Assembly: GCA_031367385.1 (NCBI GenBank)
Contig: JANLPS010000275.1
Coordinates: forward strand, 1-11,061
Length of the DNA stretch: 11,061 nt
Source of the DNA: Archangium sp.
GTDB lineage: Bacteria > Myxococcota > Myxococcia > Myxococcales > Myxococcaceae
Direction of reading: 5' to 3'
Positions 1,150 to 11,061 of this stretch are shown here, one piece after another (within the stretch, counting starts at the first letter, position 1; each line of letters starts with the position of its first letter). The notes below the pieces were generated by a model that was given only the letters and a program-made list of their open reading frames with translations, was not told the origin of the DNA and did no database searches. A program made the translations under genes and the position numbers.

Positions 1150-2169
1150 GTGATTCCCCAGACCTCCATAGTGCGGGCGACGTGGCGAGCGCTGCTGCAA
1201 CCGCGGCGGCTGTTGCCGATTCTGGCAGTGAGCGCGCCGCTGGTCATCGCGCAGGCCCGGTGGAGCAGAGACGGCTTGGCCACGCCGCTGGCGATCGCGA
1301 TGTGCGTCGCCTTCGTCACCCTGGCCCCGGTGTCGTACCGTGTGCTCTTTCCCGATGGGCTCGACTTGAGCCACGGCGCGGTGCGGCTGGTGCTCTACGC
1401 GCTCATCGGCGCTGGCGTGATGCTCTCTCTGGGCGTCGGAGTGCCGCGCTTTCTCAACATGAACGGCACCTTCTTGACCGAGCGCACCTCGCTGGCCGTG
1501 ACCATCGCGATGTTTCTGGTCGGCGGCTGGGGTCTCGGGCGAGACATCGGCTTCGAGCAACGGGTCGAGCGGCTGCAAGTCGAGGCCGAGCGGGCCCAGC
1601 TGCTCGCGCTCCGCTCGACCGTCGACCCGCACTTTCTGTTCAACACCCTCAACGCGATCGCCGAGTGGTGCCGCCTCGATGGCGTGGTGGCCGAGCGTGC
1701 CGTGCTCGAGCTGTCGGCGATGCTGCGCGCGGTGCTGTCGGGCGTGAAAGAGACCCGCTGGCCGCTGAGCCGTGAGCTCGAGCTGGCCAAGCAAGTGTTC
1801 GATTTGCACCTGCTGCGAGACCGCGAGCTGTTCGAGCTCGAGCTGAAGGTGCCCGAGCCGGTGCCGGCGGCCCAAGTGCCTCCGATGTGCGTGATGACGC
1901 TGGTCGAGAACGCGATGAAGCACGGCCCGGGCGCGGGGCATCGAGGCAAGGTGTCGTTGACGGTGACGACCGAGGGCTCGACCTTGCGAATCGCGCTCGA
2001 GAACCCGGGGCGTTTCGCTGGCCCCCGCGCCGGGAGCGCTGGCCTGCCGTCACTCGAGCGGCAATTGGCGTTGGCGTACCGAGGTCGGGCGCGGTTTTCA
2101 ATCGCCGCAGCCGGTGCCAATGGAGAGCGAACCCGCGTCGAGCTCGAGCTGCCAGGAGATGCCGCATGA
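1150..2169 (+). CDS. LytS/YehU-family sensor histidine kinase with membrane-embedded N-terminal sensor
   Basis: About four hydrophobic segments, then the LytS H-box LALRSTVDPHFLFNTLNAI (His161), RELEL and the N-box TLVENAMKHG; stop overlaps the regulator start (ATGA). Confidence 0.93.
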   Translation: MIPQTSIVRATWRALLQPRRLLPILAVSAPLVIAQARWSRDGLATPLAIAMCVAFVTLAPVSYRVLFPDGLDLSHGAVRLVLYALIGAGVMLSLGVGVPRFLNMNGTFLTERTSLAVTIAMFLVGGWGLGRDIGFEQRVERLQVEAERAQLLALRSTVDPHFLFNTLNAIAEWCRLDGVVAERAVLELSAMLRAVLSGVKETRWPLSRELELAKQVFDLHLLRDRELFELELKVPEPVPAAQVPPMCVMTLVENAMKHGPGAGHRGKVSLTVTTEGSTLRIALENPGRFAGPRAGSAGLPSLERQLALAYRGRARFSIAAAGANGERTRVELELPGDAA

Positions 2170-2900
2170 GAGTGCTGATTGCCGACGACGAGCAGCTGGG
2201 CCGCTCTCGGTTGCTGCGACTGCTGCAAGTGCTGCCTGACATCGAGGTGGTGGGCGAGGCGAAAGATGGCGAAGAGGTGCTCACGCGGGTGCGAGCGGGC
2301 GGCATCGACGTGGTGCTGCTCGACATTCAAATGCCCAAGCTCACCGGCACCGAGGCCATGGCGCTGTGGCCAGTCGATGGGCCGATGGTGATTTTCTGCA
2401 CCGCGCACGCCGAGCACGCGGTGAAGGCCTTCGACACCGGAGCGGTCGACTATCTGCTCAAGCCCGTCGAGCCCGAGCGACTGCAGCGAGCCTTGGAGCG
2501 AGCGCGCTCAAGAGAACGCAAAGAGGTGTTCTCGAATGAGGTGAAACGGCATCAGCTCTCGCGGTTGCCGATCTCGACCCGGCAGGGGGTGGTGCTGGTC
2601 GACCCGGAGACGATTACGCACGCGGTGCTGGAGGACGAGCTGGTGACCGTGTTCACTCGCGAGGGGAAACATCTGAGTGATTTCACCTTGAATGACCTCG
2701 AGCAGCGGTTGCCGCCGGGCAAGTTCGAGCGGGTGCATCGTCGGGCGATTCTGAACCTCGAGGCGGTGGCCCGGCTCGAGCCGCTCGAGACCGGCGGGTA
2801 TCTGGCGAAGACCCACACCGGTCACTCGGTTGAAATCTCGCGGCAGGCGGCGCGTGAGCTTCGAAAGCGACTCGGTCTGCGCAAGGGAGATGAGGAGTAG
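2166..2900 (+). CDS. LytTR-family response regulator (REC + LytTR DNA-binding domain), 244 aa
   Basis: True start is the ATG at 2166 inside track ORF 1887..2900: MRVLIADDE, VVLLDIQMP (phospho-Asp), FCTAH..AVKAF..GAVDYLLKP, and the LytTR signature FERVHRRAILNL. Confidence 0.95.
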   Translation: MRVLIADDEQLGRSRLLRLLQVLPDIEVVGEAKDGEEVLTRVRAGGIDVVLLDIQMPKLTGTEAMALWPVDGPMVIFCTAHAEHAVKAFDTGAVDYLLKPVEPERLQRALERARSRERKEVFSNEVKRHQLSRLPISTRQGVVLVDPETITHAVLEDELVTVFTREGKHLSDFTLNDLEQRLPPGKFERVHRRAILNLEAVARLEPLETGGYLAKTHTGHSVEISRQAARELRKRLGLRKGDEE

Positions 2901-6273: not shown

Positions 6274-6516
6274 ATGCGAGCCCGTGTCTACGTGACCCTG
6301 AAGCCCGGCGTATTGGACCCCGCCGGAAAAGCCGTCGAATCGTCTCTGCACTCCCTGGGCTTCCCCGAGGTGGGTGATGTGCGCCTGGGCAAGTTCGTCG
6401 AGCTCGAGGTCAAGGCCGCCGACAACGCGGCCGCCAAGGCCCGGGTCGAGCAGATGGCGGCCAAGCTGTTGGCAAACACGGTGGTCGAGAACTACCGAGT
6501 GGAGATTCTCCCGTGA
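6274..6516 (+). CDS. purS: Phosphoribosylformylglycinamidine synthase subunit PurS
   Basis: [26 protein letters not shown] and [11 protein letters not shown]; 80 aa; GTGA overlap with purQ. Confidence 0.97.
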
Positions 6517-7169
6517 AGTTCGGCGTCGTCACGTTTCCCGGGTCGAACTGCGATGAAGACGCGGCGCACGTGGTGGGCCAGGTGTTGGGCCAGAGCGTCG
6601 CGCGGCTGTGGCACAAAGACCGAGACCTGCAAGGCAGTGACGTGGTGATCGTGCCGGGGGGGTTCAGCTACGGCGACTACCTGCGCTGCGGGGCCATCGC
6701 CAAGTTCTCGCCGATCATGGAGTCGATCGTCGCCCATGCCAACCGCGGCGGCCGAGTGCTCGGCATCTGCAACGGGTTTCAGATTCTGACCGAAGCCGGG
6801 TTGTTGCCGGGCGTGCTGCTGAGAAACTCGTCGCTCAAGTTCATCTGCCGCACGGTGGGGCTCGAGGTGACCAGCGCGGCGACTCCGTTTACCGGCAAGT
6901 ACAAGGCGGGCGCCAAGCTGCAGCTGCCGATCGCCCACGCCGAGGGTAACTATTTTCTCGATGACGACGGCATCAAGCGGCTCGAAGACCAGGGTCAAAT
7001 CGTCTTTCGCTACACCGATAACCCGAACGGCTCGCGCAACGACATCGCCGGGGTCTGCAACGAGGCCAAGAACGTGCTGGGCATGATGCCGCACCCCGAG
7101 CGCGCGGCAGAAGCGATTCTGGGCAGCACCGACGGGCTGGGCCTCTTTGAGTCGATGCTCGCCGCGTGA
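6513..7169 (+). CDS. purQ: Phosphoribosylformylglycinamidine synthase glutaminase subunit PurQ
   Basis: [45 protein letters not shown] and LGMMPHPER (Cys-His-Glu triad). Confidence 0.98.
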
Positions 7170-7929: not shown

Positions 7930-9435
7930 TTAACAGCCCTGCGAGCAGTCGAAGGCAGGCTGGGTCGCGTAGGTGACGCCGTTCACGTCGTGCTCGTCTT
8001 CGAAGTTGGTGTCGGTGACGCCCAGTGACACGTTGAGCTCGCCGGTGCGCTCATCCAAAGTCCACCGGGAGTGGGACCGCTTTCGCAGCCACGATCGCGC
8101 CTTGGCATCGCTCGGCGCGGCCACCACTCCGAACTCGGTGCCCTGGTAGGCAGACGACTCGACCCGCACGACGGTCTTCGAGGTGCCGAGCGGCATCACC
8201 AAGCGCCGAATGTGAGCCCGGTACATGTCGACCTCAACCTCTTGCGTGCCCGCGCAGGCGTCATGGGTGCGGACATCGGTCGAGTAGAACCACAGCACCC
8301 GCGGCCGTGTCGCATCGACCACCAGCTGCACCACGGTGCCTTGCACAATCGCCGCCTTCTCGAGCACCTCCACCCGCTTCTGCCAGGGCCCCTGGCTCTT
8401 CTCGCTGCACGGCTTGCGCACATCGACGTGCGACAAGCAGAACGAGTCAGACAGCTTCGCCGGGAGCTTGCCGCTCACGAACGAGACCCACTTCGCGGTG
8501 GCGGGCTCACCGACGCAGGCCCAGGCGACGTCGATGCGCTTGGGCGCGACGTGCAGCTGCGCCGTGGCGGCGTTGACGACCCACGAAGCGCGGTTGGCGA
8601 CCCAGGCGGCGTCGAGCCACGCCGAGCGAGCGTCTTCGGTACGATCGATCAAGAACGCACGGTGCAGCAGCACGACCGCCTCGTCTTGCTTCGCGGGGCT
8701 GCCCGTCTTGCTCGCCGCCCACGCCGACAACGCGGCCGCGTCGATTGGGTTGGTCGAGAGCCACTTGAGCTCGACCGCTCCGGTCTTCGAGGTGCCGGTC
8801 GACGCGATCGGGTCAGACCCCGCCTTGCCGAAGCGAACGTCGGTCGCGAGCTTGACCGACACCGTGGCCCAGGCCCCCTCGACCTTGGTCACCGCGAGCT
8901 CGGTGTTGATCGGCAACAACATCACCTGCGGCGCGCGTGCCTTGGCCGAGGCTCGCAGGGGCAACAGGGCGGTGGCCACATAGGCGATGCCCGCGTCGTC
9001 GGTGAACGGAGCGCCGGTCGACTCGACCTCGGGCAGCGCCGATTCGGGCACCAGATCAGGGCCGCTTTCTCCGCGCTTGAGCAGCAGCTGGGCCAGAATC
9101 GCGACCTGCCACGCGTCAGGCGTGCCGACGGTCTCGAGGGCCTTGGTGGCGGCTTCAGGGTCGCGCAGCAGCAAGCGTTTCAGCGCCAGACCCTCGACGG
9201 CACCCGTGTCGATGGCGGCATCGTCAGGCACGCCCTCGGTCTCTTGAGCGTCATCGGCCGGCTCGCCGACCTTCGGCTCAACGGCCTCAGCCACTGCCGC
9301 ATCGGGCGGTGGGGTGACGGGCGGAGGCGCGGGGATCGGAGCCGGCACGACGACCAGTGGCGGCCGCTCGCGGTCTTTGTCACACGCCATCACCACCAGA
9401 CCCACTGCGCACAGGCCCACCCAGAGTTGTCGCAT
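7930..9435 (-). CDS. Lipoprotein with Pro-rich linker, SH3b-like domain and Cys-containing C-terminal domain, 501 aa
   Basis: ATG at 9435 gives MRQLWVGLCAVGLVVMA-C (lipobox); Pro-rich linker; AYVATALLPLRASAKARAPQVMLLPINTELAVTKVEGAWATV...TGAVELKWLS fits bacterial SH3; six further Cys in the C-terminal half. Confidence 0.8.
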   Translation of the reverse strand: MRQLWVGLCAVGLVVMACDKDRERPPLVVVPAPIPAPPPVTPPPDAAVAEAVEPKVGEPADDAQETEGVPDDAAIDTGAVEGLALKRLLLRDPEAATKALETVGTPDAWQVAILAQLLLKRGESGPDLVPESALPEVESTGAPFTDDAGIAYVATALLPLRASAKARAPQVMLLPINTELAVTKVEGAWATVSVKLATDVRFGKAGSDPIASTGTSKTGAVELKWLSTNPIDAAALSAWAASKTGSPAKQDEAVVLLHRAFLIDRTEDARSAWLDAAWVANRASWVVNAATAQLHVAPKRIDVAWACVGEPATAKWVSFVSGKLPAKLSDSFCLSHVDVRKPCSEKSQGPWQKRVEVLEKAAIVQGTVVQLVVDATRPRVLWFYSTDVRTHDACAGTQEVEVDMYRAHIRRLVMPLGTSKTVVRVESSAYQGTEFGVVAAPSDAKARSWLRKRSHSRWTLDERTGELNVSLGVTDTNFEDEHDVNGVTYATQPAFDCSQGC

Positions 9436-9445
9436 CGAGGGCAGG

Positions 9446-9451
9446 AGCCTA
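9446..9451 (-). promoter_or_regulatory. Possible -10 element (TAGGCT) for a near-leaderless transcript of the lipoprotein gene
   Basis: TAGGCT on the minus strand ends 10 nt before ATG 9435; no Shine-Dalgarno sequence and no convincing -35. Confidence 0.3.
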
Positions 9452-9963
9452 CCCGCGCTCTGCTCGCCGGCCGAAGGCAATCTCATGTCTCAAAGGCATT
9501 GATGCCGAAGGGTCAGGCGACGAGATCGTCTCGATGCTGCCGTTGTCTAACCACGTGGGCTGGAGGCGAACGTCGATGAAGGCCATCGCGCATGGGAGCG
9601 CCACCGTGGCGGCCCGCGTCTGTGCATACTCTTACCCAACCATGAGCTGAGAGGCAGTCGCTGTGCTGTTCCTCCCAAACGCTGGTTTTCGGCGAACGAT
9701 CCTCGATCGGTTCCCCTCCGCGGATCCCCGATGCGTTCCGAGGCGGGTAACGACACACGTACAGAGCAGGGCACGGCTTCGATTGGGTGCACGTCTGCGT
9801 GCAGAACTTTTTCGAAGGCTTTAACCCGCACCACCGCCAACCCGCACCCTCACTGAATCTGCAAAAACACAAGGCACACCCTTCGGGTCACAAGTAACGC
9901 AACTATGATTTCTCCAAGAACGCAGCGACGGCGCAAGCCTCTCAAATGACGTCAATCGGCGCA

Positions 9964-9979
9964 TGGCGCAGTTGATGCA
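9964..9979 (+). promoter_or_regulatory. Sigma-54 (RpoN) -24/-12 promoter
   Basis: TGGCGC-AGTTG-ATGCA versus consensus TGGCAC-N5-TTGCW, with exact GG-N10-GC spacing (GG 9965-9966, GC 9977-9978). Predicted TSS near 9990, about 35 nt before ATG 10025. Confidence 0.75.
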
Positions 9980-10024
9980 AACTCAAGGCGAGCAGTCGTC
10001 ATCCCAACCCCCCGGAGAACCACC

Positions 10025-10126
10025 ATGGCCAGCCCGAAAAAGCCCCTGCAGCTCGAAGTCAAGAAGCTGAAGACCCTCTCTGACCCGTCGACGGTGAAGG
10101 GCGGCCTGAGCTGCACGACCTGGTAA
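10025..10126 (+). CDS. 33-aa double-glycine-leader precursor-like peptide MASPKKPLQLEVKKLKTLSDPSTVKGG-LSCTTW
   Basis: GGAG RBS at 10014-10017 (7-nt spacer); 29 of 32 non-start codons end in G/C; upstream sigma-54 motif; downstream terminator. Shorter than any ORF in the track. Confidence 0.85.
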   Translation: MASPKKPLQLEVKKLKTLSDPSTVKGGLSCTTW

Positions 10127-10141
10127 AGACCCAGCCGGCTC

Positions 10142-11061
10142 CTATTCCAGCCGCCCCTGCCCGTCTGCGACGGAGCAGGGGTGTGTTCGTTTTGACAGGG
10201 CATCGTTGACCAGCTCGACGGTTGGCCGACACCCGGCGGCCCGCTTCTTCGCCTCCGTGAGCACCGGGGGAAAGATCTCCATTCGCGACACTTCGCCCTT
10301 GGGGCCGCGCAGTGTCACCTCGCCGCCCTCGAGCCGAACCTGATCGATGCCATGCCCAATCGTCAGACGAGAGATTCGCTTTTGTGTGGCCCAGTCGAAG
10401 ACTGAGACGACTCCCGCGCGGCCGATCAAAGCCACCAGAGACCCAGAAGCGCTCTCCGTCAGTGGGAGCTTGGTAAACTCCTCGTCCGTCTCCAACCTCA
10501 GGTCAGGTTTTTCGAGATCTCCCACGTCAAGTCGAAGAATCTTTCCGTCCATTCCGAACGTGAGCAATTTGCCTTTTCGCGGTGACTGCCACACATAGAA
10601 GAAGCCGCTGTGCGCGGGGCTGGTTCTCTTGAGCGAGCCGTCGGTCAACGACAACGCGTACAACTTGCCCGAGTTCGACGCCGCAAGAAGCTCGGTGTTG
10701 GTGAAAACCACGTTGGTGATGAAGTCATGGGGAATCGTGAAAAACCGGCTCGACCCGTCTTTCGCCAAGACCAGAACCCTTTCAAGCGTCGGCACCGCGA
10801 TCAGATTGGAGTCAGCTGAGGCTGCACCGAGCTGCTCGGTTCGCGGGGTCAAGGTTCGCTGCGTCTCGACGATGAACTCTTCGCCGACTCTGCGAAGAAC
10901 GAGCACTCGGTCTCCAAGAGAAATCACCCCCCAGCTGTCATCGGGAGCAATCGTGCTGTTGAAATCGGAGACGTTGTCGAATGGGTAGCGAATCGGCACC
11001 ACTTGGAGGCTCTTGGTGCGAACGACCCCCTGCGCGCCCCGAATCGAGACCTGGGCGCCCA
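10142..11061 (-). CDS. C-terminal part of a WD40-like beta-propeller protein; partial, continues beyond the right edge
   Basis: The frame stays open upstream of the track start 11002 to the edge (GAQVSIRGAQGVVRTKSLQVVPI...). About 40-residue beta-rich blades: ITNVVFTNTELLAASNSGKLYALSL, AHSGFFYVWQSPRKGKLLTFGMDGKILRLDV, SASGSLVALIGRAGVVSVFDW. Confidence 0.75.
   Translation of the reverse strand, partial: GAQVSIRGAQGVVRTKSLQVVPIRYPFDNVSDFNSTIAPDDSWGVISLGDRVLVLRRVGEEFIVETQRTLTPRTEQLGAASADSNLIAVPTLERVLVLAKDGSSRFFTIPHDFITNVVFTNTELLAASNSGKLYALSLTDGSLKRTSPAHSGFFYVWQSPRKGKLLTFGMDGKILRLDVGDLEKPDLRLETDEEFTKLPLTESASGSLVALIGRAGVVSVFDWATQKRISRLTIGHGIDQVRLEGGEVTLRGPKGEVSRMEIFPPVLTEAKKRAAGCRPTVELVNDALSKRTHPCSVADGQGRLE
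10153..10193 (+). terminator. Intrinsic terminator downstream of the small peptide gene
   Basis: GCCCCTGC-CCGTC-tgc-GACGG-a-GCAGGGGT stem (13 bp, one bulge) followed by GTGTTCGTTTT. Confidence 0.7.

Follow-up and report, generated by a model that had tools for sequence, protein, structure and literature searches.

A short double-glycine peptide gene and a convergent STAND receptor kinase gene of Archangium belong to a recurrent cassette that may mediate peptide signaling

An 11,061-nucleotide (nt) stretch of Archangium sp. DNA (GenBank assembly GCA_031367385.1, contig JANLPS010000275.1, forward strand), here referred to as the window, is the entire contig C73 of a draft genome, G000, which comprises 7.97 Mb in 562 contigs with 65% GC and 98% completeness. 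Near its end, a 33-amino-acid (aa) open reading frame (ORF) at positions 10025-10126 on the plus strand encodes a putative double-glycine peptide precursor. This small gene is no orphan, as 15 nt separate its stop from that of a convergent receptor kinase gene. The two genes form a cassette that recurs in many genomes, and this cassette, whose gene content, architecture, and linkage were observed directly, is the important object at the locus. By analogy with known pheromone systems, the likely product of the small gene is a secreted peptide that signals to the neighboring receptor, in a circuit where the peptide would be exported, its cognate receptor kinase would respond, and sigma-54 would provide feedback; our lean toward this reading is a modest one. 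A first-pass annotation of the window had proposed a hexapeptide signal or a hexapeptide that is made on the ribosome and modified after translation (RiPP). It correctly noted that no maturase or exporter is encoded in the window but overlooked the convergent gene at 10142-11061 (minus strand), which is the key partner.

In G000, we found eight receptors of this type, three whole and five split over contigs; among the split ones, the join of the window to contig C284 was demonstrated, and the other four, whose contig ends do not overlap, were paired by presumption. A peptide gene lies beside the 3' end of seven of the eight, within 250 nt in six cases (binomial probability of ~6e-14, calculated post hoc). 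Searches with a 275-aa domain that marks the receptor subfamily retrieved at least 54 loci from GTDB genomes and at least 56 from metagenomes, to which 20 further regions were added. After identical sequences were collapsed, at least 109 receptor ORFs from outside G000 were available, 60 of them with at least 600 nt on both flanks. Peptide genes were detected within 1.5 kb of the receptor in 26 of these 60 loci with a leader profile trained on G000 and a pattern rule set post hoc, and in 37 of 60 with a profile retrained on the same loci, a partly circular procedure. Regions near receptors held 72 peptides in 230 kb, compared with 12 in 423 kb of flank farther out. None occurred in 262 kb around 20 control nSTAND1 kinases that belong to another class, but as these come mostly from other genera, the far flanks make the fairer comparison. 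Because kin loci are not independent, receptors were also clustered at 60% identity, and 19 of 29 clusters bear a peptide. The peptide gene occurs in four arrangements relative to the receptor (25 downstream, 11 convergent, 9 divergent, and 8 upstream; n=53), and the link outlasts these changes of layout. By their titles, the GTDB loci among the matches listed belong to Myxococcaceae, Kofleriaceae/Haliangiales, Polyangia, and Nannocystineae, with a few labeled Deltaproteobacteria, Proteobacteria, Acidobacteriota, or Clostridia. The subfamily is patchy, being present in 11 of 401 genomes of a phylum-wide sample and in 11 of 363 from the order; in the order count, only two candidates per genome were scored, and one genome (G280) enters only its denominator.

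The small ORF translates as first annotated, with G or C at the third position of 29 of 32 codons (GC3), and its GGAG ribosome-binding site (RBS) at 10014-10017 lies 7 nt before the ATG. Among 17,135 ATG-started ORFs of 28 to 40 aa in G000, 453 have a codon score at least as high as that of the window peptide, and only 10 combine such a score with an RBS and a GC3 of at least 0.9. A 27-aa leader with a Gly-Gly end (10025-10105) is followed by the predicted core LSCTTW and the stop codon (10106-10126), cleavage being presumed to occur after the glycines. Downstream, a GC-rich hairpin at 10152-10195 on the plus strand likely serves as a terminator. The hairpin proposed in the first-pass annotation is real (stem at 10152-10183, -26.8 kcal/mol), but its U-tail is weak, it lies within the last codons of the receptor gene on the opposite strand, and a terminator scan made no call there. 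Pfam and NCBIfam, including the NF038153 model, gave no match to the window peptide, Rfam returned nothing at an E value of ≤1 for positions 9400-10300, and orthologue searches with the LSCTTW peptide found none. At the syntenic site, no peptide lies upstream of the homologues of the 518-aa flanking gene in genomes G001 and G006; in G012, the contig stops there.

Relatives that conserve the leader and its glycines, for which the first-pass annotation had suggested searching, do exist. A leader profile run on 77,810 short ORFs of G000 gave 18 matches scoring at least 16.6 bits, whereas the best shuffled decoys reached 9 to 11 bits; a later profile gave 23 matches at 10 bits or more, the weakest three of which look spurious, and extra members at contigs C365 and C438 were spotted by eye. 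In an alignment of 17 leaders, L18, G26, and G27 are invariant and V24 is nearly so, and the family shares a basic N terminus, an L-x-L-x(7)-L pattern, and a V-x-G-G end. As had been remarked at the outset, the match to the classic ELxxIxGG leader is partial; the window leader is nearer to the LxLxKx5L...GG type, of which it is a divergent relative. For NF038153-type class I lanthipeptides, leaders are described as carrying this motif, ending in GG, and being served by a C39 protease (PMC7268733). Like precursors of that class, the family follows C39 protease logic, and its leaders are related: 15 of 25 receptor-linked or nearby relatives from other genomes match NF038153 at an E value of ≤0.01, and the ESM Atlas gave leads to this family at 0.86. 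Unlike them, the window peptide has no hidden Markov model match, Val replaces Lys in its motif, and no LanB or LanC gene adjoins it. The double-glycine class of C39 or PCAT substrates fits the window peptide, for which cleavage and export are predicted.

The cores, at 6 to 68 aa, are unrelated, cannot be aligned, and have no common motif. Of the two products originally suggested, the signal has gained most, and a specially modified hexapeptide is so far unsupported. LSCTTW is tied for the shortest of 58 family cores examined, 6 of which are Cys free. It has one Ser, two Thr, and a single Cys placed between the Ser and the two Thr, which differs from class I lanthipeptides, and any thioether ring would span just 2 to 3 residues. 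LSCTTW may be modified in trans by the lone LanB/LanC pair of the genome or may stay unmodified. A likeness to cittilin and crocagin, also raised in the first-pass annotation, was rejected for want of support: no such enzymes lie near the gene, and the leader differs from theirs. An F/W-P-R-M motif, which is a good candidate for a binding epitope, is common to the four peptides that surround one receptor at L121, a locus duplicated from G001.

The receptor gene runs off the window. Positions 10142-11061 (minus strand) encode its last 305 aa, which comprise a second beta-propeller region and a C-terminal Cys pair, and the frame continues on contig C284 (locus L070), whose first 25 nt are the final 25 nt of the window, in frame. 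An intact 1794-aa receptor from another assembly, P0001, is identical to this join. In order, the protein consists of a Ser/Thr kinase, the 275-aa domain, an nSTAND1 NTPase, one transmembrane (TM) helix, and ~700 aa of beta-propeller (WD40). The NTPase matches PF20703 above its cut-off (E value of 8e-101 on C284), with Walker A at residue 666 and Walker B at residue 742 of P0001. Kinase and Walker motifs are intact in the window receptor, and catalytic motifs are retained in 72 to 79 of 80 homologues. Near residue 1054, the TM helix has an excess of Lys and Arg on its N-terminal side in nearly all of the 48 receptors examined, 2 of which are truncated and have no real helix. A Cys pair closes the ectodomain (about residues 1105-1794 of P0001) in 48 of 64 receptors, compared with 2 of 64 for a matched stretch. 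Both features fit a propeller outside the cytoplasm, where we predict that the sensor lies. Median identity is 49% for cytoplasmic parts and 26% for ectodomains, and no relative of the window receptor's ectodomain exceeds 33% over its length; cytoplasmic parts and leaders are conserved, and ectodomains and cores hypervariable.

The 275-aa domain (L070:2649-3467, minus strand) was modeled with a pLDDT of 95. It had no Pfam match in the two receptors scanned, and the model had no Foldseek match at an E value of ≤0.001. Its best fold match, a weak one, is to a HEPN-like helical bundle of Roquin (Z score of 8.5, root mean square deviation of 2.9, 132 residues aligned). In this HEPN-like part, the R-x4-6-H motif is not conserved, at most 8 of 50 sequences having one in common within any 10-residue bin. 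ESM Atlas look-alikes of the domain are unnamed and mostly from Bacteroidota.

A predicted sigma-54 (-24/-12)-type promoter site (9963-9979, plus strand) lies 62 nt upstream of the ATG of the window peptide, with GG at 9965-9966 and GC at 9977-9978. The spacing is right, as the first-pass annotation held, but the site fits only 9 of 13 positions of the consensus, and ~7% of shuffled upstream regions attain 9. The call is supported because paralogues carry the same class of site: seven of eight receptor-linked peptide genes in G000 have one scoring at least 9 at 53 to 70 nt before the ATG, as opposed to none of 12 unlinked leader-bearing genes. Of 72 regions upstream of receptor-linked peptides in other genomes, 20 score at least 10, mostly at 39 to 72 nt before the start, and the controls gave a mean of 1.0 and a maximum of 4 for shuffles, 1 for the reverse strand, and 0 to 4 for shifted spacers. 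Given the GG-N10-GC element, an rpoN gene in G000, and suitable activators, promoter activity is predicted. Activators combining FHA and sigma-54 interaction domains, all of one subfamily, occur at 16 of 109 receptor loci and at none of 20 control loci. G000 encodes five to seven of them, of which one, on C259, adjoins a receptor's 5' half and another, on C277, an exporter operon.

Genes for processing and export also recur near receptors, with LanB at 9 of 109 loci and C39-type exporters at 7 of 109; Ser/Thr kinases and LanC-like, HlyD, and TolC-type genes are other recurrent neighbors. Of the two C39-ABC exporters in G000 (C277 and C365), neither is adjacent to the window peptide gene, and no LanB or LanC gene occurs in the window or on C284. 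Together with one LanB/LanC pair, these exporters fit the processing in trans that had been expected of this double-glycine precursor. The pair (C455; L044:6482-11230) is the sole full one detected in G000; no precursor adjoins it, and it is a candidate maturase in trans. None of the rSAM/SPASM, PqqD, and YcaO loci of G000 examined as candidate maturases is linked to the window peptide gene.

Two other loci of G000 show fuller gene sets. On C19 (L031:7621-10809), the 3' end of a receptor gene and an ATP-grasp gene accompany two identical precursors, each with a -24/-12 site, that flank a lone LanC-like gene. Contigs C365 (L047) and C259 (L074), if joined as we presume, probably hold a complete cluster: an FHA-sigma-54 activator, HlyD, a receptor, a 4-Cys peptide, a TolC-type protein, a C39-ABC exporter, a C39-VKOR fusion, and two genes of the metallo-beta-lactamase fold.

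We propose the following scheme for the cassette. A C39-ABC exporter encoded elsewhere would cut the precursor after Gly-Gly and export LSCTTW, either unmodified or dehydrated or cyclized by LanB/LanC, and the core would bind the extracytoplasmic double beta-propeller. The STAND NTPase would then oligomerize, allowing the Ser/Thr kinases to trans-phosphorylate, and an FHA-domain sigma-54 activator would read the phosphothreonine and fire the peptide gene's -24/-12 promoter and those of other targets, closing a positive feedback loop. We infer export, binding, phosphotransfer, and autoinduction from the analogous BlpC/BlpH system (10.1101/087247) and from STAND and FHA biochemistry. In Myxococcus xanthus, a 2005 study by Jelsbak of FHA-domain sigma-54 enhancer-binding proteins reportedly proposed a link from Ser/Thr kinases to sigma-54 promoters; we know of no upstream receptor or peptide ligand for those proteins.

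The closest functional parallels are the BlpC/BlpH/BlpR/BlpAB and ComC/ComD/ComE/ComAB peptide pheromone systems of Streptococcus pneumoniae (10.1101/087247). As there, a double-glycine precursor, cleavage and export by a C39-type ABC protein (here predicted), and an adjacent polymorphic membrane receptor come together; in Blp and Com, signal and receptor diversify jointly and transcription is under positive feedback (10.1101/087247), and the same is proposed for the cassette. The cassette differs in that its receptor combines a Hanks-type kinase, a STAND NTPase, and beta-propellers in place of a histidine kinase, its likely output is an FHA-sigma-54 activator and not a response regulator, its host is Gram negative, and up to 8 to 11 channels occur per genome. 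By this analogy, its logic would be that of a three-component peptide pheromone system without a histidine kinase or response regulator. No such pair adjoins the peptide gene, as it does in ComCDE and BlpCHR. A LytTR-type pair 7 kb away (window 1150-2897, plus strand; a sensor-like gene and a response regulator, BtsR-like at a sub-cut-off score) does not recur among the neighbor clusters and is unlinked to the cassette.

Several observations weigh against the signaling reading. Over 48 pairs, core similarity does not track ectodomain similarity (partial Mantel test, partial rho of -0.19, permutation p of 0.996), and after better core parsing, with six peptides that have no parseable GG left out, rho was 0.06. 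When the comparison is limited to the 31 pairs whose cytoplasmic parts are similar, cores are alike in 6 of the 10 with similar ectodomains versus 1 of the 21 with dissimilar ones. This positive result is confounded by linkage, since the peptide gene usually adjoins the ectodomain and the two would be swapped together. No peptide lies within 1.5 kb of 23 of the 60 receptors, and at least 12 leader-bearing genes of G000 have no adjoining receptor. The receptor on C360, whose ectodomain is the closest relative (33%) of that of the window receptor, has no peptide. A linked peptide on C480 has no -24/-12 site, 52 of the 72 upstream regions from other genomes score below 10, and no such site was found upstream of the exporter or LanB genes checked. 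Finally, LanB, LanC, ATP-grasp, and VKOR neighbors would suit a bioactive RiPP effector equally well. A transposase pair, which we take to be IS21-like, begins ~270 nt past the stop of the C360 receptor gene (L072:13752-16393), the sole peptide-less receptor of G000, and its insertion may have removed a peptide gene.

In the main rival reading, which we consider rather unlikely, the receptor senses an outside cue, such as prey, a competitor, or envelope damage, and switches on the peptide gene through the same FHA-sigma-54 activator, so that the peptide is an antimicrobial or otherwise bioactive RiPP output and not the ligand. Linkage, sigma-54 sites, and activator neighbors are explained equally well in this way, and the LanB genes at 9 of 109 loci, the recurrent LanC-like genes, some loci with ATP-grasp, VKOR, or TolC/HlyD export genes, and the missing global covariation of cores and ectodomains are all in its favor. 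What it leaves unexplained by itself is why each peptide keeps a divergent receptor to itself if a single activator subfamily could do for all of them, and why cores and ectodomains split in step among close receptors (6/10 versus 1/21). A 6-aa core and the Cys-free cores at L109, L121, and L196 are, to our knowledge, unlike known lanthipeptide antibiotics, which also counts against an effector. Even so, if the receptor controls an effector, the cassette would be a regulatory module for RiPP genes of a kind not found in the literature searched.

We hold it improbable that the receptor is an NLR-like conflict or defense protein whose propeller detects an invader in the envelope and whose STAND and kinase parts trigger dormancy or death, with the peptide as alarm or effector. 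The patchy spread, the fast-evolving sensor, and the weak HEPN-like match of the 275-aa domain are compatible with such a role, nSTAND1 is named in conflict systems (PMC8195603), and WD40 sensors are found in defense STANDs (PMC13581612). However, PADLOC (2023) applied to P0001 and the 113 nearest of 416 neighbors returned only generic kinase, AAA, and HEAT matches and partial mad2/mad3, and no Avs model appeared for P0001 among the best 25 of 31 PADLOC families; the HEPN-like part has no conserved R-x4-6-H motif, and the sensor is predicted to lie outside the cytoplasm. Very doubtful, finally, is the idea that the peptide is one orphan among dispersed precursors that are processed in trans as a library, beside a receptor that was merely co-inserted or with which its pairing has decayed. 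G000 does contain about 23 leader-bearing genes at dispersed sites, and many of them neighbor maturases of unrelated kinds (YcaO/TfuA, MNIO, JmjC, and methyltransferases), and the window core is minimal and has no orthologue that we found. The receptor-peptide linkage statistics argue otherwise, as do the intact promoter, RBS, and coding bias and an intact 1794-aa receptor 15 nt away.

We give even weight for and against the broader proposal that such cassettes constitute a Gram-negative peptide-signaling class. Its receptors would be NLR-type STAND proteins that have become single-pass receptor kinases and that detect, outside the membrane, a double-glycine peptide made by the cell itself, with sigma-54 feedback through an FHA activator and 8 to 11 orthogonal channels per genome. 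If true, bacteria would have a counterpart of plant peptide/receptor-kinase signaling built from immune-receptor parts, and eight receptor/peptide channels in one genome would permit kin- or density-specific signaling. If binding holds, STAND/WD40 receptors would have a self-made ligand and FHA-sigma-54 activators an input, peptide quorum sensing would reach Gram-negative social bacteria through unrelated parts, and a function would be suggested for many "orphan lanthipeptide precursors." Few receptor-like Ser/Thr kinases have a ligand known to us; with a candidate encoded beside each receptor, about 50 receptor/peptide pairs are open to direct testing.

Parts of this architecture have precedents. 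Receptor-like Ser/Thr kinases number in the tens to hundreds in myxobacteria and planctomycetes, and single-pass kinases with periplasmic WD40 arrays are known in Planctomycetota (PMC11032199). Cassette receptors resemble the latter in having a cytoplasmic kinase, one TM helix, and a periplasmic WD40 array, but they add the 275-aa domain and nSTAND1, and the available text on the Planctomycetota kinases mentions no ligand or peptide gene (PMC11032199). With STAND/NLR sensors such as Avs, nSTAND1, and BASS proteins they share the layout of effector, STAND, and variable repeat sensor, and with BASS also the adjacent gene pair (PMC13581612, PMC8195603, PMC10907252, 10.1101/2020.01.06.895854). They differ from such sensors by a membrane helix between NTPase and sensor, and from BASS by a partner gene that encodes an export-type precursor and not a Bell/amyloid effector, with no defense neighbors found among those scanned. 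Reports of nSTAND1 in conflict systems, in their available text, mention no adjacent peptide gene (PMC8195603, PMC7159879, PMC10907252). We found no published description of the peptide/receptor-kinase pairing in the literature searched, from which most subscription papers are absent, and the supplements of PMC13581612 and PMC8195603 may list the clade; nor did we find this receptor type described in that literature.

Other members of the leader family in G000 sit beside diverse tailoring genes. On C438 (L032), four GG-type precursors with short Cys-rich cores adjoin an unusual mix of enzymes: an MNIO/DUF692 protein, its partner protein, YcaO, and a TauD dioxygenase. Three related precursors on C215 (L033), C451 (L034), and C413 (L035) have P-S-(C)-H-A-A cores, and their tailoring genes differ per locus (YcaO/TfuA plus a TylF methyltransferase, methyltransferases, and a cupin/JmjC protein). 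Precursors with an FCVTPWD end lie beside a JmjC protein on C512 (L037) and a GMC oxidoreductase on C201 (L036); both are at contig ends and possibly belong to one cluster.

Within the window, the intergenic segment at 9717-9820 (103 nt) has 90% identity to C257:14642-14744 of G000 and no Rfam match. The cassette and the 518-aa gene sit between the genes at window 6274-7169, which we take to be purS/purQ-like, and a presumably purL-like gene at L070:4893-7142. In G001 (L060), a different cassette lies on the other side of the same pur-like genes.
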